IMG/VR virus record: IMGVR_UViG_3300024327_000544
Strand: one strand, 5' to 3'
Length of the DNA stretch: 64,000 bases
Origin: a virus
Shown here: piece after piece, positions 35,596-45,934 of the stretch
Position numbering within the stretch: position 1 is the stretch's first letter
Layout: each line of letters opens with the position of its first letter
Translations under genes and position numbers: made by a program
The notes under the pieces: model-generated
Database searches by the model: none
The model's input: the letters and a program-made list of their open reading frames with translations, nothing else
Told to the model about the DNA's origin: nothing

Positions 35596-37446
35596 TTATA
35601 CTTCTAGTCCGGAATCTTCTTTTTCGCCCTGTGGTTCAGCTGGTCTAGGAGAAGCATATGAATATGCATCACCTACACGTGATATCTGTCCTGCTTCTAA
35701 CATATCATCCAATAACTTTTGTACTTGCATTGGACTACACTTCAATGCACGAGCAATTGAAGTAGCTGAAGCTGGCGAATCATCAGAAGCAAATTCGGCA
35801 CCAACAGGTACTGCCCTTTTTACACGACCAAAAGAACTACCACCTGCTAGATATTCAAGTATATTATTTTCGAGAGTTCCGTCTTTCTGTTCTGCTGCCA
35901 TTTTCTGTTTATACTTCCGTACGAAGGAAACACCTGTACTTTCTTTCACTGTTGGCTCCATCTTTATTTTGTTATCGACCTTACCGGTCTCTTTTACTTT
36001 GGATCCGATTTCATCAGAATCCTCTTCTTCTTTTTTAGCTTCATCATAAGTTGGATCAGGCGCTGATTGTTGCTTTGCAATTATTTCTTTGGCCTTCTCA
36101 TAAGCAAGCTTTCTAATTTTTTCTTTAAATACTCTACGCCTTGCATCAATAGTTTCAGGAACCTCTTCTTCAGTACCTTCCAATGCAGAAAACGCTAAAT
36201 TCGCAAGTTTTGAACGCGTTGTAGAAGCTCCAGCGTCTTTCTTGATTCCGCTCATACCTCCATCATCAGTCCGTCTAGCATTTTCGGCATCTTTTTGTTT
36301 CTTCCTTAATGCTCTATCTTTATCTGCTTGAGCCTGTCGTTTTTCCTGTTCCTTATCATTTGCATTGGCTTGTGTTTCACGAGCTTTATCTGCTTTTTTT
36401 GCATCAGCCTGATTGTCTTGATTGCCTGACTTTTGTTTTATCTTATTATTGCTAGCTTGTTTATCAGCAATCTTTTCCGCATCTGATTTTGCTTCATCTA
36501 GATCATCATCTTCACCAATAATTGAACCAGCAGCTTTTTCTAAATCTGCCAACTCACACTCATCTGCTAATTTTTGAACTTCAGGTGAAGGTGCATCAAT
36601 TGTTCCCATCTTAGTGGCATATGCAAGAGATACTAATCTGCGTTCTGGAGTTCTAATTAAACGTTCTCCGATCTCTGCCCATGTAAGACCATCATACTTC
36701 TGATGCATTTCAGACATCAACCAGCCATGATATTTTTCTGTCTTCATCTTCTTCATGACTTTATCTGCAATCTTTTGATCATTCATTAAGATCATTAGAA
36801 CAGATTGACGTGGCTCTTCTTCCATGCTATCTAAGTAAGGTGCTAACTTATCATAAGAGCGTTGTTTAATTAACTTTGCAGCGCCTTCAAGAGACAACTT
36901 ATCTCTACCTCTTGTTACTTTAGCTAATGCAATGGTTTCTTTGTAGATATCCACCGCTCCAGGTTTTCCATGAGAAACTGATTCTTTAGTACCATATATT
37001 TGATCATCCATATTTGTAACTGTATCTTGTTTTAGGGAATACTCAACCTCTTCTGGATCATCTTTCTTTTTCTTCTTCTTCTGTTGCTTTTTCATATTAA
37101 CATCTTTATATTCATCCTTAGACATTTCATCAACGTTTGCTGAACAATCACAATTCTTACATCCTTCAGGACATTCACAAGGCCCACCATCACAACAAGG
37201 ACAACCTTCGCCTTTATCTTCAACAGCCTTACTAATTGCTTTCCTTTTCTTATGTAGAAACTTATCAGAATCGTCTTCATCACCATCTTTATCTATATCT
37301 ACAAATTCGTCATCTGAACGATCTTTCCAATCTTGTTTAACTGCGTCTTTGTCCACAGGAGCGAGTTTTCTCTTCTCCCTTATCATCTCAATGTCTGCTT
37401 CTGTTATCGCCGAGTAATTCGCGGGATAATATTTTGACCAATCCAT
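35596..37446 (-). CDS. Large charged internal-head-like protein with Cys cluster and C-terminal winged helix
   Basis: N-terminal ..AITE-A, DIDKDGDEDDSD..KKRKAISKA, CPCCDGGPCECPEGCKNCDC, and SATSIARALKCSPMQVQKLLDDMLEAGQISR. Confidence 0.55.
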   Translation of the reverse strand: MDWSKYYPANYSAITEADIEMIREKRKLAPVDKDAVKQDWKDRSDDEFVDIDKDGDEDDSDKFLHKKRKAISKAVEDKGEGCPCCDGGPCECPEGCKNCDCSANVDEMSKDEYKDVNMKKQQKKKKKKDDPEEVEYSLKQDTVTNMDDQIYGTKESVSHGKPGAVDIYKETIALAKVTRGRDKLSLEGAAKLIKQRSYDKLAPYLDSMEEEPRQSVLMILMNDQKIADKVMKKMKTEKYHGWLMSEMHQKYDGLTWAEIGERLIRTPERRLVSLAYATKMGTIDAPSPEVQKLADECELADLEKAAGSIIGEDDDLDEAKSDAEKIADKQASNNKIKQKSGNQDNQADAKKADKARETQANANDKEQEKRQAQADKDRALRKKQKDAENARRTDDGGMSGIKKDAGASTTRSKLANLAFSALEGTEEEVPETIDARRRVFKEKIRKLAYEKAKEIIAKQQSAPDPTYDEAKKEEEDSDEIGSKVKETGKVDNKIKMEPTVKESTGVSFVRKYKQKMAAEQKDGTLENNILEYLAGGSSFGRVKRAVPVGAEFASDDSPASATSIARALKCSPMQVQKLLDDMLEAGQISRVGDAYSYASPRPAEPQGEKEDSGLEV

Positions 37447-37448
37447 TA

Positions 37449-38891
37449 TTAGCTCCTGTTGGCAATAATTTTGGAAATCATCTTACTGACTCTTTCCGCT
37501 TGTTGTTCGCGTTTTTTATTTTGTTCTGATTTAAACTCCTCTCCCGGAGTCAAATCTACAAGGTACTGTCTATATTTATCTGTTCCGATTTCTAACTGTC
37601 GGCCTTCTTTAGCTCTATCCTTGTGCCATTCCTTTAAACCAAGTATTTTTTGTAATTTAGAACTTACTGGTTTATTAATATCTATGTTATTTGTAGGCAA
37701 TTCATCTATTCGTTCATTCATATAAGAAAGATTTGCTATGTCATAATCAACATTTTCACCTAACAATGTAATAAAATCGGCGGCCTTCTTTGTGTGCTCT
37801 CTCATCCGCGATACTTCCCATAATGCTACTTTAATCGCGCCACCAAATGCCATTTCATACTTTTCCCAAAATTCTTCTGTTTCTTTTAAAGCACGTTTAT
37901 AATATTCTTGTTTGGGCTTCGTTGTAGCAAATTGTTGTAGATATTGAAACACTTCTTTTGTATATTCTTCCACATGATAAGTCTTATTCTCATAATGAAT
38001 CTTATCCATACATAATGATTCTTTATCTACCGAAGAAGAAGGTGGTGCTTTTGCCGGCACTGGCTTATTTTTTACTTTAACAACCGGACTCGCAGGTTTC
38101 GCTCCTGAATCTGCTTTTTGCATTATACTATCTATTCCTGCATCATCGTTTGTTCTTGGTGGAGCAGTTTTAGATACAAATTTTCCCATTGCTGCTTTAG
38201 GATCCTTAGTAGTATTCTTCATTGGAGCAATCGGTTTCCCAGGACCCAATTTTTCTTTTATTTGTGCTTCAATAACAGATAATCTCATACCTTTTCGTAA
38301 TGATTGATATAATGAACGTTTATCTTTATCAGATAAATTATCTGGTAAACCTTCTTTAAAATTATCAAAATCACCATCAACGGCATGTGATCTTAATTTA
38401 GAAGCTGACATTCCTGTGGCATCGTCTGCATCTGGATCTCTTTCACCAGCGCTTTCTATTTCTATTTTTTTAAAATCATAAAAACCATGAGCTTTGCCAT
38501 CAACACCATTATATTGAGGTAACAATTTTTTAAATTGATTTACTCTATCACTTCCTACAACCATAATAACTTCTTCATATCCTTCATCATGTAATAATGA
38601 AAGGGATTTCAATGCATCTTTAGGTTGATCACCTGAATACTTAAAAATGTCTTCGCCTTTCGGTTTAAACATTTTTTTCATCCATTTAATCTTTTCTTTA
38701 TATTCTAATGGATTCTTTTTAGAATCTTGTGTAGAACTAGGGAATATAAAAGCATCACCACGATTGCGTTTAGCAACTGCGGTTACCTTATTAACTAAAA
38801 TCTCGTGTCCAATTGTAGGGGGGTTAAACCGACCAAAAGCAAATACTGCTGTCTTTAACGACCCTTCCCGTAATTGAGTAAATGAAATCAC
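37449..38891 (-). CDS. HIGH-superfamily nucleotidyltransferase (T4-like 'cytidyltransferase') with long C-terminal extension
   Basis: FGRFNPPTIGH, KNPL, VVGSDR and GMSASKLR. Confidence 0.85.
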   Translation of the reverse strand: MISFTQLREGSLKTAVFAFGRFNPPTIGHEILVNKVTAVAKRNRGDAFIFPSSTQDSKKNPLEYKEKIKWMKKMFKPKGEDIFKYSGDQPKDALKSLSLLHDEGYEEVIMVVGSDRVNQFKKLLPQYNGVDGKAHGFYDFKKIEIESAGERDPDADDATGMSASKLRSHAVDGDFDNFKEGLPDNLSDKDKRSLYQSLRKGMRLSVIEAQIKEKLGPGKPIAPMKNTTKDPKAAMGKFVSKTAPPRTNDDAGIDSIMQKADSGAKPASPVVKVKNKPVPAKAPPSSSVDKESLCMDKIHYENKTYHVEEYTKEVFQYLQQFATTKPKQEYYKRALKETEEFWEKYEMAFGGAIKVALWEVSRMREHTKKAADFITLLGENVDYDIANLSYMNERIDELPTNNIDINKPVSSKLQKILGLKEWHKDRAKEGRQLEIGTDKYRQYLVDLTPGEEFKSEQNKKREQQAERVSKMISKIIANRS

Positions 38892-40099
38892 ATTCCCCCT
38901 CGAACCTTATCGAGATATGCGTCTTTAACAGACTGGTTTAATTTGTCGTTAGACATTTTTTCAAAACCCTTTACTTCTTCCACATCCTCTTTGTCTTTTG
39001 CTGCTTTTTCTGCTATTCTCAAAACCGAGGCAGCTAGATCACTTTTTGGTCCTGTGAACGGTCCGCTACCAAAATAATCATGACTCTCGTTTTGTTCTTT
39101 CTTCTCATCGCTCTTTCCAGAATACTTACTCTTTCCTTTCATTTCACCCTTGGAGAGAGGTCCTAGCTTTTCAAAGTCTTTATCTCTTGGTTTCTCCCAC
39201 TCTTCTTTTTCTACATTCCCCGTTTTCTTGTTAGCAGCTTTACCAAATTTAAATGCTTGATAATCTTTTTTTGCTGCTTTGAAATCTGCACGTTTCGATT
39301 TAAGATTTTGTCCTGGTGGTTGACTAGTGTCACCAACTCTTGAAGCGGCTTTAGCCGATACGGCTCTTTGTTGTCCAGCTTTCGCTTTAGCTGATTGTTG
39401 CGCGCGTTGTAATAAGCCTTTTGAAAGTTCATCAACAGGTTCTTCTGTAGATGTATAACTGTTATACATATTCCTCTTAACACTACTTAATCTCTTATCA
39501 CGGGAATCTTGGCTTTCGGGCTTGGCCGGCTTTTCGCCAGCTGCCGCACTGAATTTTGCGGATTGTTTCTCTCTCTTCTCTGCCTTCTTCTTTGTCGCCT
39601 TCTCCCTTTCTGTCCTTCCTCCGTCAAACGCTGCCAAATCATGGTGGTCTTTTTGTTTCTCCATATCTTTGTGTGCTGCACTTGCGGCTCGCTTTAAAAG
39701 ACCAGTTGTAATTTCAGCGAAAGTCTTCTTAATATCTCCGCCGCCCTTCCATTCTATTCTTGCATCAGAGGCTTCTTCTTTTGGGCCGTATCCTTTAGGT
39801 GTTACATCTTTAATATTAAGTTTTTCTCTACCTTTTGCAATACGAGCTGCGACTTCTGGTTTTAAATCACCTTTTTTGTCAAAAAACTTTGCAAGGTGAG
39901 GTGGTAACTTTGATGCTTCTTCCATCTCAACTTCTCCTGCTCTTGCCCTTTTAAGCTTAGCTTGAGTTTCTGGAGAAGAAGGAGTTTCTCTAGCCTTCTT
40001 CCTTCTCTCTGATTCTTTTCTTTTATTATCATACATATCTATGCCGGATGAATCAACTTCATTAACTGGAGATTCTGTATATTCTTTATATGTTTTCAC
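38888..40099 (-). CDS. Lys/Glu-rich internal-head-like protein with internal repeats
   Basis: MKTYKEYTE N-terminus; repeats AEITTGLLKRA and DELSKGLLQRA. Confidence 0.6.
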   Translation of the reverse strand: MKTYKEYTESPVNEVDSSGIDMYDNKRKESERRKKARETPSSPETQAKLKRARAGEVEMEEASKLPPHLAKFFDKKGDLKPEVAARIAKGREKLNIKDVTPKGYGPKEEASDARIEWKGGGDIKKTFAEITTGLLKRAASAAHKDMEKQKDHHDLAAFDGGRTEREKATKKKAEKREKQSAKFSAAAGEKPAKPESQDSRDKRLSSVKRNMYNSYTSTEEPVDELSKGLLQRAQQSAKAKAGQQRAVSAKAASRVGDTSQPPGQNLKSKRADFKAAKKDYQAFKFGKAANKKTGNVEKEEWEKPRDKDFEKLGPLSKGEMKGKSKYSGKSDEKKEQNESHDYFGSGPFTGPKSDLAASVLRIAEKAAKDKEDVEEVKGFEKMSNDKLNQSVKDAYLDKVRGGM

Positions 40100-40362
40100 C
40101 AGTCGCTCCTATCTCCGCCACCCTTCCATTCTATTCTTGCATCGGTACCTTCTTCGATAGCATCTAAGAACCCTTGTAACATATATGGTAATTTTTGTGG
40201 ACGTCTCATAAACTTATGAACATAGTCCTCATATACTTGTGCTAGTTTATTTTTAATTCTATCAGGCGCGGAATCAATGCAATCACGTAATGCATCAATC
40301 AACTGGTCAGAATACTTAGATTCTTTCAGGTCGCGCTTTGAGAATTCTTTGTAATTTTTCAT
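40096..40362 (-). CDS. Small putative internal head protein
   Basis: MKNYKEF..LKE N-terminus. The ATG overlaps the upstream TGA. Confidence 0.6.
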   Translation of the reverse strand: MKNYKEFSKRDLKESKYSDQLIDALRDCIDSAPDRIKNKLAQVYEDYVHKFMRRPQKLPYMLQGFLDAIEEGTDARIEWKGGGDRSDW

Positions 40363-41585
40363 TGGTCCCAATCCTTTTCTGCGGTAAAATTTATTCTACT
40401 AAATTCCATTCTGTTAACTAATTTTAATCCCTTACCAGAATCAAATGAGTCAATAGCAACAAACCCTTCTGGTTTTGTTACTTTATACCCGGATGAGGTT
40501 TTAATAAAGGTAGAAGTTAAACCTTTTACCTCTTCTAACTTCTCTACAATATATAGCTTAATATTATTTATTAAAGCCATTATACGAAAAACAGTACCTA
40601 TCTGATCTATATTCCCATTTAATTTCTTTAAGTATTCATCAACAGTCATTTGTTTTCGTGTACGACCTTTTTCTGATTTTAACTTTGCAACATCTTTATC
40701 TAACTTAGCTTTAATAAATTTTACACAATCTCTTGCTAACCTTTCTTCTATAAATTCACCTTCTCTGACTTTAGAATTTATATAGGTCTTAATATGAACT
40801 TTTAATATATTATCATCTTTGATACTATCAAGAAAACGACCATTGACTTTATTAAAATCTTTTCCTAACTGAGACAACATATCTGTTACTTTCTTTTCAT
40901 CTGCCTTTGTAAATGTTGCTGTTCCACTTACATCTGTAAAGTCCGCATTAACAGCCCAAACATCCTTATGTGATGTCCATTGATTTACATCTGCACCAAA
41001 CTCAGCTTTCAAATCTGCTAAGTCTTCTTGTCCTGCTGTTCTGTATGTTGTATGAAAAACAATTCCAATCTTTGCTTTAATTATGGCATTTGCTAATTCT
41101 GTATTTAAAGGAACGGCATAAGTTATCGTATTAGGTGTAAACGTAATCTGTCTTTCCTTATCAATTGTCTGTATCTTCTTATCTTTATCCTCTGTCCAAA
41201 GAACATCACCTTGAAAAATATTACCTGGAATCTTTAACTTAGGTAAATGTTCTAATAAAGCACTCATTTTAGCATGAAGAGGGCCGCCACCGAAATGTTC
41301 ATCAACATCAGCTTGAATAAAACATGGGCGTCTCATTGACTTATAATCAACAAAGAATTTTCCATTAGGATGGATACCGGCGACTATAGCAGGAGCGCCA
41401 TCCCATTTAACAGTAACATTAACTGCTTCTTTATTATGACCGGCTAACATGTTTCTTAAAGATCTTAAAAAATCAATAGCACCTCTAGTACCATTAACAC
41501 CACCATTCAACACCTCATCTTCGAGATGTTCCATATGAAGATTTTTTCCAGAGGCTTCTGCAAGAAATTGTTTATATTGTTTCAC
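40359..41585 (-). CDS. ATP-dependent RNA/DNA ligase-superfamily nucleotidyltransferase-like protein (recalled as DUF6267-type)
   Basis: VTVKWDGAPA (motif I), IFQGD (III), IVFH (IIIa), PEGFVA (IV) and LKLV (V). N-terminus MKQYKQFLAEA. Confidence 0.65.
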   Translation of the reverse strand: MKQYKQFLAEASGKNLHMEHLEDEVLNGGVNGTRGAIDFLRSLRNMLAGHNKEAVNVTVKWDGAPAIVAGIHPNGKFFVDYKSMRRPCFIQADVDEHFGGGPLHAKMSALLEHLPKLKIPGNIFQGDVLWTEDKDKKIQTIDKERQITFTPNTITYAVPLNTELANAIIKAKIGIVFHTTYRTAGQEDLADLKAEFGADVNQWTSHKDVWAVNADFTDVSGTATFTKADEKKVTDMLSQLGKDFNKVNGRFLDSIKDDNILKVHIKTYINSKVREGEFIEERLARDCVKFIKAKLDKDVAKLKSEKGRTRKQMTVDEYLKKLNGNIDQIGTVFRIMALINNIKLYIVEKLEEVKGLTSTFIKTSSGYKVTKPEGFVAIDSFDSGKGLKLVNRMEFSRINFTAEKDWDQ

Positions 41586-43111
41586 CTTACTCCCAATTTC
41601 CGTTTCATATCCGCAAAACTTTTTCCAAGATCTCTATCAGCATTATCTCTACCAAATTTCAATTCATTTTTAAGAGAAAAATACCTGTCCAAAGCTGCTC
41701 CAAGTTCATCGCTCACCTTTTTAAAATCTTCCGGTGAATTGTTATCATTCATCAAACCTTTTGAAGAGTAGCCAATTGGCTTACCTCTTTTATTTTTTAG
41801 AGCTTTCACACTAGAATATTCAAAAGCCTGTTTATTAGATTGTTTTTTACTAAGTGATTTAAAAGTTGATTCTAATGAACTTCTTATTGCATTTTTTTCT
41901 TTTATCTTTTTCTCAAAATCGGTATCACCAGGATCAAAAATTGCTTCATTTTTGAAAGGACCTGTTTTTATTCTTGTAGATGATCCTGTACCAGAAAAAC
42001 CTCCTCCTCCAGTCCATCTTAACATCCATTCAGTACCTGGATTCCATTCTTTAGAAGTATAGAGATCTTTCCCATCTTTAAATGAGATGACATCCAATGA
42101 TATTTTATCAAATAATGTAACATAATCCCATCCATGTTCTTTATAATCATTTAATGCATTGGCGTTCCATTGTTTTATAAATTCATTAGGATCGGTTAAT
42201 CCATTCTTTACAGTCTTATTAAAAACATATTTCGAGGCTTTGTCAAAAGGCATTGCTTCAACACAAATATCATGCCATAGTTTTTCGCAAGCTTTATCTG
42301 CTTGTCTTTGTGAACCGCCATTTTTTTCCATCCATAAAGTAGTATATTTTTTACTACCAAGAGAAAGGGCTTTAGGTATACCACCTTGCGCATTGCTATC
42401 CTTATAAACACTTCTACCTCCAAGACCCATTTTATCTGCTTCTTTTGCTGTTATATCGCTACCTAAATCTTTGAACGCATTAATAAAAAATAATTTAGCA
42501 TCTGCAAATTTGTCAGGTTTGGAAAACGTGCCACCAGATGCTTTAAGTTCTACATTATAACCGTCTGCTAATTTGACATCGCCTTTATTATCAGCATTAC
42601 CCTTCGTTGCTCCGGGAGTAGCTAAAATAAATAAAATTTCACCTGGACCAATATTCTGATTATCTATTTTTGTTATATTTTCTATAAACTTATCTTTAAC
42701 TTTTGGCCATATGGGGCTTCTAGTATTAACATATGAATCTAATCTTACTACTTTTTTGTGACTATCTTGTACCATTTTTTTACAATCAAATACTTCACCG
42801 GCTAAAAGTTCTTTTAAAAAATCCATTTGGTCATTAGCTGGTGCACCTGATTTATTAATTGCTAAAATGATAGAGTCAATAAAAGCTTCTTTATTCATTT
42901 TTATGTTAGCAGTTTTACACTTCTCATCAAGAAGAGCAACCATAACATCTCGTTGCATAGCTTCGAGAACAGATCTTAAAACCTCATCTTCTTGAACATC
43001 TTCGATTTTATCGAGCACTTGTTTTTTGAGTGCGGGCGTTACTCTTTCTAAGAGAGTTCGAATATCCTTCTTAATATAACCCGGTGCCATAAAAGTTGTA
43101 TATGTTTTCAT
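41582..43111 (-). CDS. Hypothetical protein with PD-(D/E)xK nuclease-like motif
   Basis: IGPGE..GDVKLADGYNVELKAS. Start refined to MKTYTTF at 43111. Confidence 0.5.
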   Translation of the reverse strand: MKTYTTFMAPGYIKKDIRTLLERVTPALKKQVLDKIEDVQEDEVLRSVLEAMQRDVMVALLDEKCKTANIKMNKEAFIDSIILAINKSGAPANDQMDFLKELLAGEVFDCKKMVQDSHKKVVRLDSYVNTRSPIWPKVKDKFIENITKIDNQNIGPGEILFILATPGATKGNADNKGDVKLADGYNVELKASGGTFSKPDKFADAKLFFINAFKDLGSDITAKEADKMGLGGRSVYKDSNAQGGIPKALSLGSKKYTTLWMEKNGGSQRQADKACEKLWHDICVEAMPFDKASKYVFNKTVKNGLTDPNEFIKQWNANALNDYKEHGWDYVTLFDKISLDVISFKDGKDLYTSKEWNPGTEWMLRWTGGGGFSGTGSSTRIKTGPFKNEAIFDPGDTDFEKKIKEKNAIRSSLESTFKSLSKKQSNKQAFEYSSVKALKNKRGKPIGYSSKGLMNDNNSPEDFKKVSDELGAALDRYFSLKNELKFGRDNADRDLGKSFADMKRKLGVR

Positions 43112-43118
43112 TTTTTCT

Positions 43119-43346
43119 CTATGGTACAATTACCGTATCCCCTTTTGTCCACTTGTCCATAATATCATTAAGTTCTTTAGCCATCTTTTTAATTGAATTA
43201 GCTTCCGCGCCCATCTGACCGTTATTCCGGGCCCATCTAGTAATTCTATTAGCGCGCTTAGCTACATCCTCTATTGATTTTACAGCTAACTTACTAAATG
43301 CCATAGTCTCTAGAACTTCTTTTGCAGAATCTGCTACGTTATCCAT
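43119..43346 (-). CDS. Small hypothetical protein
   Basis: ATG at 43346 (MDNVAD) immediately after the upstream stop. Confidence 0.55.
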   Translation of the reverse strand: MDNVADSAKEVLETMAFSKLAVKSIEDVAKRANRITRWARNNGQMGAEANSIKKMAKELNDIMDKWTKGDTVIVP

Positions 43347-43347
43347 A

Positions 43348-43869
43348 TTACTTCCCTGAATTTTGCTTACACCATTGTTCAATTGATTTGACCAATTTTT
43401 TATCAATTGAAGTTAATTTTCCATTTAAATTCTCACTCGCTCCATGAATATCTACTGGGTCACCGGCTAGCCAACCGGGAAGAGTACCCTGTAAATTGTG
43501 CCATTTCATGTTGCGGTTTCCTTTGTTGCGACCTATGGGGTCGTATACATCATCAGAATCATCAAGAAGCTTCGTCACATCCTTTCCTTTTTTATCTTGA
43601 AGGGTTATCGAAACGTTCCTAATTTCTTCTTTGTATCCTTCTCCTCCTTTTTCGCCTTCAATCATAATTCCCGGAATAATAAAGAAGTCTCCACATTTTA
43701 TTTTTTTACCGTAATGGTTACCAGTACTATAATCTGTTTCAAGCTTATCGAACTGTTTAAAGCCTTTTTCAATATCACGAGCAAGATCTTCTTTTATATA
43801 TCCACCAAAATGCCCTCCGCTTAATCCATCCGTCCATCCTTCGAGGGTTAAATCCTTATAAGTTTTCAT
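43348..43869 (-). CDS. Hypothetical protein with capsid-targeting-like N-terminus
   Basis: MKTYKDLTLEG with an AAGGA SD. Confidence 0.65.
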   Translation of the reverse strand: MKTYKDLTLEGWTDGLSGGHFGGYIKEDLARDIEKGFKQFDKLETDYSTGNHYGKKIKCGDFFIIPGIMIEGEKGGEGYKEEIRNVSITLQDKKGKDVTKLLDDSDDVYDPIGRNKGNRNMKWHNLQGTLPGWLAGDPVDIHGASENLNGKLTSIDKKLVKSIEQWCKQNSGK

Positions 43870-43908: not shown

Positions 43909-44529
43909 CTATTTAGTCTTTTTAAGATACCGATATTTTTCTTTTGCCAGTGTTCTCATCTTATCTGCAACCTTAGTATCTATTGTAGCATACCTTGCAT
44001 ATGCATCGCAAGCTTTTTCTTTCTTTTTATAAAGAAACATGTCAAAAGCCAGTTCAGAACTGTAAGCATCTATCTCAAAGGGGCTTGAAAAATAATCAGA
44101 ATCGGAATTAAATGCTTGTCCGTCTTTACTATCATCAAATTGCAACGAATGGGTTAATTCATGGACAAATGTAAGAACAAATTGTTCTTTATATCTTTCC
44201 CATTGTTCTTCTGGAATGTATAATTGGTGGGTATATAGTTCTGGGGATAAATTTACTGTAATCTCTATCTCAGATTCAGAATAGTGTTCTTGTGGTACAT
44301 TTGCTGCACCATCATATGTTAATTCATATAATGCATGTGTTCTATCTTTTCTTATATTAATATAACAAGGAAATCCTAATTGTTCTTCGATTAGTTCTCC
44401 CATTTTGAGAGAACAATTTCGCCAGGATGTTATATATTTTAATGTTGATTCATTATATGCCCTTTCAAAGCATTTAAAAGACTGACATGCTGTTTCTATA
44501 TTTTCTTTAATAAGATCTAATTCATTCAT
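43909..44529 (-). CDS. HExxH zinc-metallopeptidase-like protein
   Basis: FVHELTHSLQ..Y..SPFEIDAY. Start refined to 44529, overlapping the gp41 stop. Confidence 0.55.
   Translation of the reverse strand: MNELDLIKENIETACQSFKCFERAYNESTLKYITSWRNCSLKMGELIEEQLGFPCYINIRKDRTHALYELTYDGAANVPQEHYSESEIEITVNLSPELYTHQLYIPEEQWERYKEQFVLTFVHELTHSLQFDDSKDGQAFNSDSDYFSSPFEIDAYSSELAFDMFLYKKKEKACDAYARYATIDTKVADKMRTLAKEKYRYLKKTK
43910..43917 (-). promoter_or_regulatory. Late-promoter-like ACTAAATA
   Basis: Variant of the T4 late -10 element at the head of the MKTY gene cluster. Confidence 0.45.
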
Positions 44530-45934
44530 ATTGGAAAGCACCGAAGTCCGCTTTATTGCGCATTCTATTGCCAGTGGATTGATCAAATAATGGTTCATCA
44601 TCATCTTGCCCACTATCTGCAATATCGTCTTGGGCTTTTTGTTCTACGTCATATAATCTCATTTTAGGTCTATCTATTCCAACAATGAACTTCTTATAAG
44701 ATGTAGGATCATTATATCTATTTTTTAATTGTTTTACAAGTAATTGATTTAACTGTTCCATTTCATCTGAAGATATTATAGCAAACATAAAGTCTGCTGT
44801 TGCTGGTAAACCAAAACTTTCAGATGTATCTTCTAATCCTATATCTGTACTTGTAAATCCTGTTCTTGTAGTCTGTGTTGCAGAAAGAATTGGGACATTA
44901 AATTCTACTGCTAATCCTCTCAATTCTTCTGCAATTGATTTAATATAAGTATACGAATTTACGTTTGATCCTGTTCTAATTCTTGCGCTTGAACATATAT
45001 TCAAATAATCTATGAATATTATATCAGGAGTAAAATTACGTTTCAACTTTAATTCTGATAAAAGATTTTTAAAATGCATTGCGCTTGCTGATGCAGTAGG
45101 ATATTCTTTAATAATAATTTTACCCTTAGTCTTTGCATTTATCTTATCAATTTTCTTTTGATACATATCCCTTGAAAGTTCTTCTAATTGACTAATAGGT
45201 ATATCTAAAAGATTTGCATCTATTCTTTCAGCGATCCTTTCTTCAGCCATTTCCAAAGTAATATAAAGAACATTCTTGTTTATGGATAAACAACTAGCAG
45301 CATGATGGCACATAAAAAGAGACTTACCAACACCAGTTCCAGCAAGACATATATTAAGAGTTTTATTAGGTAACCCTCCTTTAGTGATCTTATTAAACAT
45401 TTCAAGGTCGAATTCAATCTTCTCTTCAACTCTATGATAAAATTCAAATCTTTCATTTGCATCTTCAATAAAATCATGACCTACATGAGGATCAAATGAT
45501 ACTGCTAATGCATCTGACAATAAAGACGGAATAGCGCCTTTTTGTAAATTTGTTTTATTGTCGTTACCTTCTAAAATAGCAATCGCATCAACAACTGCAT
45601 TATAGATTGCTTTATCTTGACAGAAGGTTTCCGATTGTTCAATAAGCCAAGCAGTTACATCTTTATCCTCAGGTTTATCTAAGGTATTAATTATTTCTGT
45701 AGCTTTTTGGTATTCATTCTCATGCAAACCTTCTTGTTGATCTAAATCAATTAGAAGACTTTGTTTTGTGGGTAGACTATTATGTTTAACAATATAATCT
45801 TGTACCTGTTTGAAGATAAGTTTTTCTGCATTATCTTCAAAATATTCTTGCCTTATATAAGGGGAAACTTTTCGGGAAAAAGGTTCATTGTGTATCAAAT
45901 GAGATAGTATTAGGTGCTCTATCCGTTGATTCAT
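44522..45934 (-). CDS. gp41: Replicative DNA helicase (T4 gp41)
   Basis: LAGTGVGKS Walker A, ITLEMAEE, IFIDYLN, SATQTTR and SESFGLPATAD. Confidence 0.96.
   Translation of the reverse strand: MNQRIEHLILSHLIHNEPFSRKVSPYIRQEYFEDNAEKLIFKQVQDYIVKHNSLPTKQSLLIDLDQQEGLHENEYQKATEIINTLDKPEDKDVTAWLIEQSETFCQDKAIYNAVVDAIAILEGNDNKTNLQKGAIPSLLSDALAVSFDPHVGHDFIEDANERFEFYHRVEEKIEFDLEMFNKITKGGLPNKTLNICLAGTGVGKSLFMCHHAASCLSINKNVLYITLEMAEERIAERIDANLLDIPISQLEELSRDMYQKKIDKINAKTKGKIIIKEYPTASASAMHFKNLLSELKLKRNFTPDIIFIDYLNICSSARIRTGSNVNSYTYIKSIAEELRGLAVEFNVPILSATQTTRTGFTSTDIGLEDTSESFGLPATADFMFAIISSDEMEQLNQLLVKQLKNRYNDPTSYKKFIVGIDRPKMRLYDVEQKAQDDIADSGQDDDEPLFDQSTGNRMRNKADFGAFQYE

Follow-up and report, generated by a model that had tools for sequence, protein, structure and literature searches.

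The protein considered here finds its best structural match in NgrRnl of Naegleria gruberi (Rnl5 family; PDB 5COT, 6VT1), an ATP-dependent ligase that seals nicks and has no C-terminal OB domain. T4 Rnl2 and trypanosome REL1 possess an accessory helical domain instead of the OB domain, and T4 Rnl1 (gp63) and the ligase domain of fungal Trl1 act together with a polynucleotide kinase (T4 Pnk and the Trl1 kinase domain). Ligase, kinase, and nucleotidyltransferase make up the classical end-healing and sealing set (T4 Pnk-Rnl1, Trl1), and the Pol-beta nucleotidyltransferase RlaP occurs with Rnl1 or Rnl2 (PMC7824862); what these modules share with DUF6267 is the genetic coupling of a ligase to a nucleotidyltransferase and sometimes to a kinase. 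A second relevant system is the cargo of the T4 head, the internal proteins IPI, IPII, and IPIII together with Alt; in the T4 capsid-targeting leader, residues 4 and 7 serve targeting, while residues 8 and 10 serve processing (PMC9026906). Both systems bear on a DUF6267 gene found in the virus record IMGVR_UViG_3300024327_000544 of IMG/VR, which was analysed in a stretch of 64,000 nucleotides (the window).

In its predicted fold the DUF6267 protein is closest to the RNA ligases, with the fold of the nucleotidyltransferase domain recovered at moderate Z scores. On balance, the evidence tips slightly toward the view that it belongs to a new family of polynucleotide ligases acting through an adenylylated lysine, and that it is delivered from the phage head and seals or adenylylates nucleic-acid ends, together with a partner resembling nicotinamide mononucleotide (NMN) adenylyltransferases.

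The DUF6267 Gene and Its Family

The record that contains the window is 167,436 bases long and 100% complete by the CheckV estimate. The window itself is AT-rich (G+C 28–38%), and nearly every gene in it lies on the minus strand. The original prediction, made from the letters of this DNA, had singled out an open reading frame (ORF) with a series of ligase-like motif strings, and translation confirmed both the ORF and all the strings in the order proposed (Table 1). The ORF starts with GTG, which overlaps the stop codon of the upstream gene as GTGA. Its product gives a full-length match to Pfam DUF6267 (PF19782) with an E-value of 5.2e-91 and a score of 306 bits, where the gathering cut-off is 27; residues 15–404 align to profile positions 1–376. 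It is also assigned to phrog_455; neither family has an annotated function. The gene is present in a single copy in the 167-kb genome.

Table 1. Positions of the DUF6267 gene, its motifs and associated features in the window
Feature	Position	Strand	Remarks
DUF6267 gene, candidate ligase-fold covalent nucleotidyltransferase	40359..41585	(-)	408 aa; from ORF list and translation
Leader (V/M)KQYKQFLAE, T4-type capsid-targeting sequence	41556..41585	(-)	predicted prohead-protease cut after LAE
N-terminal HMEHLED (H17, H20, E22, D23)	41517..41537	(-)	conserved, family-specific H-x-x-H-x-E-D
Motif I VTVKWDGAP, residues 57-65	41391..41417	(-)	K60, predicted nucleotidylated lysine
Motif III IFQGD, residues 123-127	41205..41219	(-)	D127 on strand 123-130
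QITFTPNTITY, alternative motif IIIa candidate	41118..41150	(-)	aromatic F149, Y156; placed by spacing only
GIVFH, residues 174-178, motif IIIa candidate of the original prediction	41052..41066	(-)	on strand 173-183
Basic helical insertion, residues 227-351, six helices	40533..40907	(-)	candidate nucleic-acid-binding module; between motif III region and motif IV
Motif IV PEGFVA, residues 372-377	40455..40472	(-)	E373, G374
Motif V LKLVNR (LKLV, residues 387-390)	40410..40427	(-)	K388 invariant
Partner gene, HIGH-type adenylyltransferase-like, 480 aa	37449..38891	(-)	GRFNPPTIGH ... MSASKLR; domain residues ~11-210
Run of five overlapping genes starting MK[TQN]Y[KT]x[FYL], including the DUF6267 gene	38888..43869	(-)	candidate head-packaged cargo block

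The family is large. A word-indexed search at E ≤ 1e-5 gave at least 6,762 proteins, each representing a 90%-identity cluster, and an exhaustive search, clustered at 50% identity, gave 2,375 clusters. Cyanophages that infect Synechococcus or Prochlorococcus account for about 290 of the 305 phage records with a match. The phage relatives are T4-like Kyanoviridae and their allies; the protein of Methylophilales phage Melnitz is 43% identical, and Pelagibacter phage HTVC008M and Stenotrophomonas phage DLP_6 are further carriers. The range covers cyanomyophages, pelagiphages, OM43 phages, and some soil T4-like phages, and the gene occurs in most marine T4-like phages. In all relatives it adjoins replication genes (gp41 helicase, UvsX, gp43). 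A literature search for DUF6267, for a capsid-targeted RNA ligase, or for a ligase combined with a cytidylyltransferase in T4-like phages found no paper, and a protein atlas feature search with the DUF6267 protein returned solely unnamed viral clusters.

Predicted Fold and Structural Relatives

The AlphaFold2 model built on the family alignment has a mean predicted local distance difference test score (pLDDT) of 91.2 and a predicted template modelling score (pTM) of 0.89. Residues 1–13 are disordered, and one long N-terminal helix precedes motif I. K60 closes strand 56–60; the DG loop and an antiparallel strand come next, and the last two strands of the model are those of EGFVA and LKLV. The helical insertion and the lack of an OB domain, both proposed from the sequence, were found again in the model. 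The insertion has a net charge of +8 (family median +7), and the mature protein of about 45 kDa is basic (isoelectric point (pI) 8.8). Since the chain ends 18 residues past motif V, with one helix in this tail, there is no room for an OB domain and no motif VI.

The proposed ligase-type covalent nucleotidyltransferase fold was borne out when the model was compared with known structures, and motifs I, III, IV, and V are conserved. In a scan of 48,161 chains, run independently of Foldseek, the eight best non-helical matches were all RNA ligases: NgrRnl (Z 8.6), Trl1 (8.3 and 8.2), T4 Rnl2 (8.1), REL1 (7.7), archaeal Rnl3 (7.3), and T4 Rnl1 (7.0) head this list. DNA ligases rank below them (Z 5.6–6.9), and the remaining rows are short helical bundles that match the insertion and are not interpretable (e.g., YqeY, Z 6.4). 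In a second structural comparison all 50 of the 50 matches listed were ligases. REL1 scored Z 7.7–8.2 over both comparisons, and the best match in the second covered residues 139–339 of NgrRnl, its 201-residue nucleotidyltransferase domain, with Z 8.8, a root-mean-square deviation (rmsd) of 3.9 Å and 188 aligned residues (3.9–4.0 Å over both comparisons). Capping enzymes and NAD+-dependent ligases are not among the structural matches listed, which is no evidence against them. With Foldseek no PDB entry reached E ≤ 0.001; the best was human Lig1 at E 0.044, and the weak list was dominated by DNA and RNA ligases. Among the BFVD viral models, RNA ligases were the first annotated matches after the DUF6267 members themselves. 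A comparison with Rnl2, Rnl1, and capping enzymes had been proposed along with the original claim; it found the RNA ligase folds, while the profile alignments remained non-significant and no capping enzyme was listed.

The architecture differs from that of each structural relative. NgrRnl is 12–13% identical to the DUF6267 protein and has a separate N-terminal domain, whereas the latter has a long N-terminal helix with the HxxHxED motif and a 125-residue insertion before motif IV. With T4 Rnl2 and REL1 it shares the fold, the motif order I, III, IV, V and the spacing between motifs I and III, but the helical domain of Rnl2 is C-terminal and that of DUF6267 is inserted, and the KxK of Rnl2 motif V contrasts with K-L-V-(D/N)-R. 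T4 Rnl1, a fold match like Trl1 (Z 7.0–8.3 for the two), is an early cytoplasmic enzyme that is not known to bear a capsid-targeting leader.

Catalytic Motifs

Conservation was counted in 111 relatives that are 32–49% identical to the query, with a mean column identity of 36%. In motif I, K60 is retained in 109 of them, D62 and G63 in 110 each, and P65 in 108; VKWDG here corresponds to TKEDG in T4 Rnl1 and EKIHG in T4 Rnl2. Motif III keeps Q125 in 102, G126 in 109, and D127 in 109 sequences, and motif IV keeps E373 in 108, G374 in all 111, and V376 in 106. In motif V, K388 is present in 111/111 and R392, which occupies the place of the second lysine region of ligase motif V, in 109/111. Since the motif residues are near-invariant at such a low mean column identity, they are held by selection and not by chance. 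The distance from K60 to D127 is 67 residues, compared with 64 in T4 Rnl2 and 60 in T4 Rnl1, and motifs IV and V are 15 residues apart (13 in Rnl1 and 21 in Rnl2), the T4 spacings having been read off T4's own genes.

The sequence had been credited with the full motif set, which proved right for motifs I, III, IV, and V; the assignment of GIVFH to motif IIIa is not secure. In this string G174 is conserved in 110 and H178 in 109 of the relatives, and F177 is conserved too. The alternative stretch QITFTPNTITY keeps F149 in 108, N152 in 109, and Y156 in all 111. By the T4 Rnl2 spacing from motif III, F149 appears at least as good as GIVFH for motif IIIa, and Y156 is a candidate that likewise suits the Rnl2 spacing better than GIVFH. 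Finally, the N-terminal HMEHLED motif (H17 in 106, H20 in 110, E22 in 99, and D23 in 93 sequences) is possibly a metal or pyrophosphate site for the first catalytic step.

The DUF6267 protein is not matched by the PF09414 (Rnl2-like), PF09511 (Rnl1), or PF01068 (DNA ligase) profiles. It also lacks the Rnl5-type layout, an N-terminal accessory domain followed by a C-terminal nucleotidyltransferase domain: nothing but the leader and a single long helix comes before motif I. Because it could be assigned neither to Rnl1, Rnl2, or Rnl5 nor to the OB-containing DNA ligases and capping enzymes, DUF6267 is best described as a separate, previously unassigned family of the covalent nucleotidyltransferase superfamily.

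The HIGH-Type Adenylyltransferase-Like Partner

According to the original prediction, the enzyme works with an adjacent HIGH nucleotidyltransferase. The functional tie is supported by fusions in both orders and by synteny; strict adjacency is not found, as the partner gene lies 1.5 kb downstream with ORFs of 88 aa and 403 aa in between. The partner comprises an N-domain, disordered linkers and a small folded C-terminal domain, and has its own leader, MISFTQLRE. It matches Pfam CTP_transf_like (E 5.5e-5) and phrog_3041/395, with weak NadD matches in NCBIfam below all curated cut-offs, and neither its sequence nor its profile retrieved anything from the PDB. The N-domain is well modelled, and its best matches are nicotinic acid mononucleotide (NaMN)/NMN adenylyltransferases (NadD, NadM; E from 9e-5), followed by phosphopantetheine adenylyltransferases. 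The usual label "cytidylyltransferase" is probably misleading, because the modelled N-domain resembles NadD and NadM most. Unlike RlaP, which has the Pol-beta fold, this partner is a Rossmann-type HIGH adenylyltransferase, and the pairing of such an enzyme with a ligase is not described in the literature searched.

After about 80 disordered residues, the partner has a second small folded domain at residues ~295–375 (two strands and three helices, pLDDT 80–90). The equivalent region carries DUF5824 in P0143, a fusion protein listed below; no family was matched here.

The coupling of the two proteins recurs throughout the family. Both are covered by phrog_455, and among the 27 long DUF6267 representatives nine are clear fusions with a HIGH domain, in either order (P0143, P0220, P0129, P0209, P0241, P0249, P0200, P0255, and P0158). 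P0127 has a further weak HIGH-domain match (E 4e-5), and P0224 and P0246 start with a HIGH-like PGRFQPMGxHH. BFVD holds a 591-aa DUF6267-adenylyltransferase fusion from phage S-PM2. In the S-PM2 record AJ630128.1 (5992–7771) this fusion gene is split into S-PM2p138 and p139 ("Cytitidyltransferase"), while it is in one piece in LN828717; a sequencing error that shifts the frame in the older record is the probable cause of the split. Phages of Pelagibacter, Methylophilales, Synechococcus, and Stenotrophomonas keep the two genes in synteny, and by BLAST the pair is the only part of the block that is conserved across the window, Melnitz, HTVC008M, S-SZBM1, and DLP_6. Of the proteins encoded directly upstream of DUF6267 in these five, only those of Melnitz and HTVC008M match each other, and therefore there is no conserved third component. 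A complex prediction for DUF6267 residues 14–408 with partner residues 1–210 scored 0.00 and is not informative on binding.

A kinase is the third activity met in this context. P0243 fuses a polynucleotide kinase (PNK)/zeta-like P-loop kinase to DUF6267 (AAA_33, E 9e-10), which parallels the kinases acting with T4 Rnl1 and Trl1, and in HTVC008M a kinase of the P0243 type is a separate gene between the DUF6267 and partner genes. That DUF6267 is joined to a kinase and to a nucleotidyltransferase favours a nucleic-acid over a protein substrate. Structural neighbours and fusion partners together make an RNA-type polynucleotide ligase likelier than either a capping enzyme or an enzyme that adenylylates proteins, as far as models and predicted domains can tell.

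The Capsid-Targeting Leader

The N-terminus had been described as nearly identical to the T4 capsid-targeting sequence. It is indeed a leader of the T4 type, although the wording was a little generous: 6 of 10 residues are identical to MKTYQEFIAE, with which the T4 ipII and ipIII genes exactly start, as read off T4 DNA. Y4, F7, and E10 are retained, and L8 replaces I, so that the leader agrees with those of IPII and IPIII (and of IPI and Alt) in Y4, F7, the aliphatic residue 8, E10, and the (L/I)xE site. As with the T4 internal proteins, the phage has a cluster of leader genes and a gp21-type prohead protease, the latter encoded in the same 167-kb record (PF03420, E 2.9e-36). A pattern scan of the window revealed exactly five such leader starts, all in consecutive genes, and the next gene after them is that of the HIGH partner. 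T4 loads its head with small basic proteins or an ADP-ribosyltransferase; the candidate cargo here, to judge by the genes alone, would be an enzyme of 45 kDa with a ligase fold plus an adenylyltransferase. Of about 250 homologues, 157 carry a strict leader directly before the folded domain and 61 more have an extension that ends in an (L/I/V)xE-type site; 13 are leaderless, including those of cyanophages S-SZBM1 and S-PM2.

Matches to the consensus of T4 late promoters, TATAAATA, show no enrichment in the window (6 against 12.5 expected), and upstream of the leader-gene block there is only ACTAAATA; for these reasons we make no promoter claim.

Proposed Mechanism and the Points Against It

The reading of DUF6267 as a head-delivered polynucleotide ligase starts from what is observed: the family membership, the conservation, the predicted fold, the leader, the fusions, and the synteny. 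From these we infer lysine adenylylation, sealing, packaging, and a role in early-infection repair or counter-defence. In the first step, K60 of motif I would attack the alpha-phosphate of the donor, most likely ATP, to give lysyl-AMP, with D127 (motif III), E373 (motif IV), and K388 and R392 (motif V) holding the nucleotide and metal. The AMP would then be handed to a 5′-phosphate end, and attack by a 3′-OH would seal the strand. The basic helical insertion may serve as a nucleic-acid-binding module that replaces the OB or C-terminal domains of other ligases. By means of its leader the protein would enter the prohead core; the gp21-type protease would then cut it after LAE, and it would leave the head together with the DNA, so that the enzyme could be active before any phage gene is expressed. 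The DUF6267 protein and the NMN adenylyltransferase-like HIGH enzyme, which also bears a leader, would act in one pathway. An RNA substrate is favoured by the structural ranking and by the lack of an OB domain in the model. Rescue from PrrC/RloC-type nucleases, which had also been suggested, is conjecture.

Several observations weigh against this reading. No Pfam ligase family matches the protein even at E ≤ 1. Searches of all PDB sequences with phmmer and with the 111-sequence profile gave low-complexity helical noise alone, and hhalign of the family profile against T4 Rnl2, T4 Rnl1, and a 35-sequence Rnl1 profile gave probabilities of about 1% or less. The best hhalign result was a local match over motifs IV and V (E 0.01–0.1), which is not significant and stays the same when the helical insertion is removed; in the alignment with Rnl1 (E 0.01–0.05), EGFVA falls on EGYVA (E227 G228) and K388 on K240. 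By the comparison tool's own caveat, Z values of 8–9 lie in a range that common arrangements can reach. Motif V lacks its second lysine, and there are three conserved candidates for the motif IIIa aromatic residue (F149, Y156, and F177). K60, D127, E373, and K388 are putative equivalents of the ligase catalytic residues, identified by order and spacing. The genome has no recognisable PNK or end-healing phosphoesterase, the single sub-threshold P-loop match being in an unrelated 312-aa ORF.

The packaging of the DUF6267 protein, predicted from its leader alone, meets with mixed data from virions. In the S-SZBM1 virion proteome, the partner SSZBM1_140, which has a leader, and the product of the next gene were detected, but the leaderless DUF6267 homologue SSZBM1_141 is not listed (PMC9146016). 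The unseen protein is the leaderless one, and this fits the idea that the leader decides on packaging. In S-CREM2 virions, the cytidylyltransferase ORF154 and the products of the two following genes were found; the list thus has ORF154–156 and not ORF153, which is not established as a DUF6267 homologue (PMC10665884).

The Z values being moderate, the ligase assignment draws its strength from the uniform list of matches and from the four invariant motifs on the right structural elements.

Alternative Readings

DUF6267 might instead be the phage's own replication and recombination DNA ligase, a gp30 replacement that seals Okazaki fragments and nicks within the cytoplasm, with the leader being incidental or serving a second role. 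The 167-kb genome, complete by the CheckV estimate, has no PF01068, PF01653, PF09414, or PF09511 match, Melnitz-3, HTVC008M, S-SZBM1, and S-PM2 likewise lack PF01068 and PF09414 (the two profiles run on them), and the gene keeps its place beside gp41 helicase, UvsX, and gp43. These gene contents and this position keep a DNA substrate alive. However, Stenotrophomonas phage DLP_6 carries a canonical PF01068 ligase in addition to DUF6267; therefore, DUF6267 is not merely a gp30 substitute. Moreover, an OB domain is missing, RNA ligases outrank DNA ligases structurally, and the leader is kept in most of the family, while a late enzyme locked in the head would be of little use in replication. A replacement of gp30 is accordingly judged unlikely, if worth keeping in mind.

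The protein might also transfer nucleotides without ligating, capping or adenylylating a 5′ end or modifying a protein, possibly with an NAD+-like donor from the partner and not with ATP. As is generally known, capping enzymes and NAD+-dependent ligases use the same fold and motifs. Plain ATP-dependent ligation leaves unexplained the obligate coupling to a NaMN/NMN-adenylyltransferase-like protein, and the family-specific H-x-x-H-x-E-D motif and the missing second lysine of motif V would also suit a non-ligating enzyme. The structural match lists, from which capping enzymes and NAD+-dependent ligases are absent, speak against it, although not decisively. The partner is similar to NadD only weakly, under every curated cut-off, and the fusion to a PNK-like kinase better suits end healing and sealing. 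To our knowledge, no protein-AMPylating enzyme with a ligase fold has been described, which weighs in the same direction. We hold such a transferase to be improbable too.

A bolder scheme, which we regard as quite improbable, is an injected two-enzyme machine. Here the HIGH partner would supply the ligase-fold enzyme with its adenylate donor, newly made or regenerated, in the form of NAD+, a related dinucleotide, or a 5′ end that has been adenylylated.

The protein could also descend from a ligase but lack catalysis, serving inside the head as a scaffold or as cargo that condenses DNA. The T4 internal proteins are mostly small, basic, and not enzymes, the mature DUF6267 protein is likewise basic, and T4 Rnl1 (gp63) has a second, non-catalytic role in tail-fibre attachment, as its annotations also state. 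However, the catalytic residues are near-invariant across hundreds of diverged clusters, which argues for retained catalysis, and leaderless forms and enzyme fusions occur. This makes a purely structural role very hard to credit. Finally, a chance combination of short motifs with a common alpha/beta arrangement in a protein of unrelated activity is just as poorly credible: it would accord with the non-significance of every sequence and profile comparison with ligases and with Z below 9, but the 50 of 50 matches listed and all the top non-helical scan matches belong to one superfamily and cover the whole nucleotidyltransferase domain, and the four invariant motifs follow the expected order and fall on the expected secondary-structure elements.

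Neighbouring Genes

Further observations concern the surroundings of the pair. Two leader-bearing ORFs, 40096–40362 (-) and 38888–40099 (-), share a 15-residue stretch (TDARIEWKGGGD) at residues 70–84 and 108–122, respectively, with 13 of the 15 positions identical; it may be a processing, docking, or recombination element. Directly upstream of the DUF6267 gene, the leader-bearing ORF 41582–43111 (-) encodes a 509-aa protein with a W-x-GGGG motif and a GD...VELK stretch that by eye recalls PD-(D/E)xK nucleases. This protein has no family match in Pfam, PHROGs, or NCBIfam and is not BLAST-homologous to the proteins in the same position in Melnitz, HTVC008M, DLP_6, and S-SZBM1.

Between the helicase gene and the leader block lies an ORF of 237 aa (43909–44622, (-)) with a HELTH (HExxH) motif and a weak NCBIfam match to a metalloprotease domain, at E 7.7e-4 below the cut-off. 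The block is closed by a 616-aa low-complexity protein of acidic and basic composition (35596–37446, (-)) with a Cys-rich CPCCDGGPCECPEGCKNCDC stretch. Its C-terminus gives a weak winged-helix-like match, and it has a segment of 21–45 residues in common with proteins of HTVC008M and Melnitz.

Significance

Placing DUF6267 in the ligase superfamily gives the family a testable activity, lysine adenylylation and strand sealing, and would add to the superfamily a new architecture with a helical module inserted before motif IV and no OB domain. DUF6267 as a putative capsid-targeted ligase appears to be undescribed in the literature searched. DUF6267 may also bear on the old question of how nicks are sealed in these phages, because the four marine relatives have no canonical ATP-dependent DNA ligase or Rnl2-type ligase. 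If the donor-making role of the partner were true, ends could be sealed or marked within seconds of the start of infection, whatever the nucleotide or NAD+ state of the host. Such a virion-delivered counter-defence would be of an undescribed kind, and its activity would found a new ligase family, one that is among the most abundant genes without an assigned function in the T4-like phages of the ocean.

If the leader works as it does in T4, a ligase-type enzyme and an adenylyltransferase would be carried in the head and injected with the DNA, which would widen the repertoire of virion-delivered enzymes. It would also suggest the repair or modification of nucleic-acid ends as an immediate-early step in the infection of the most abundant marine bacteria.

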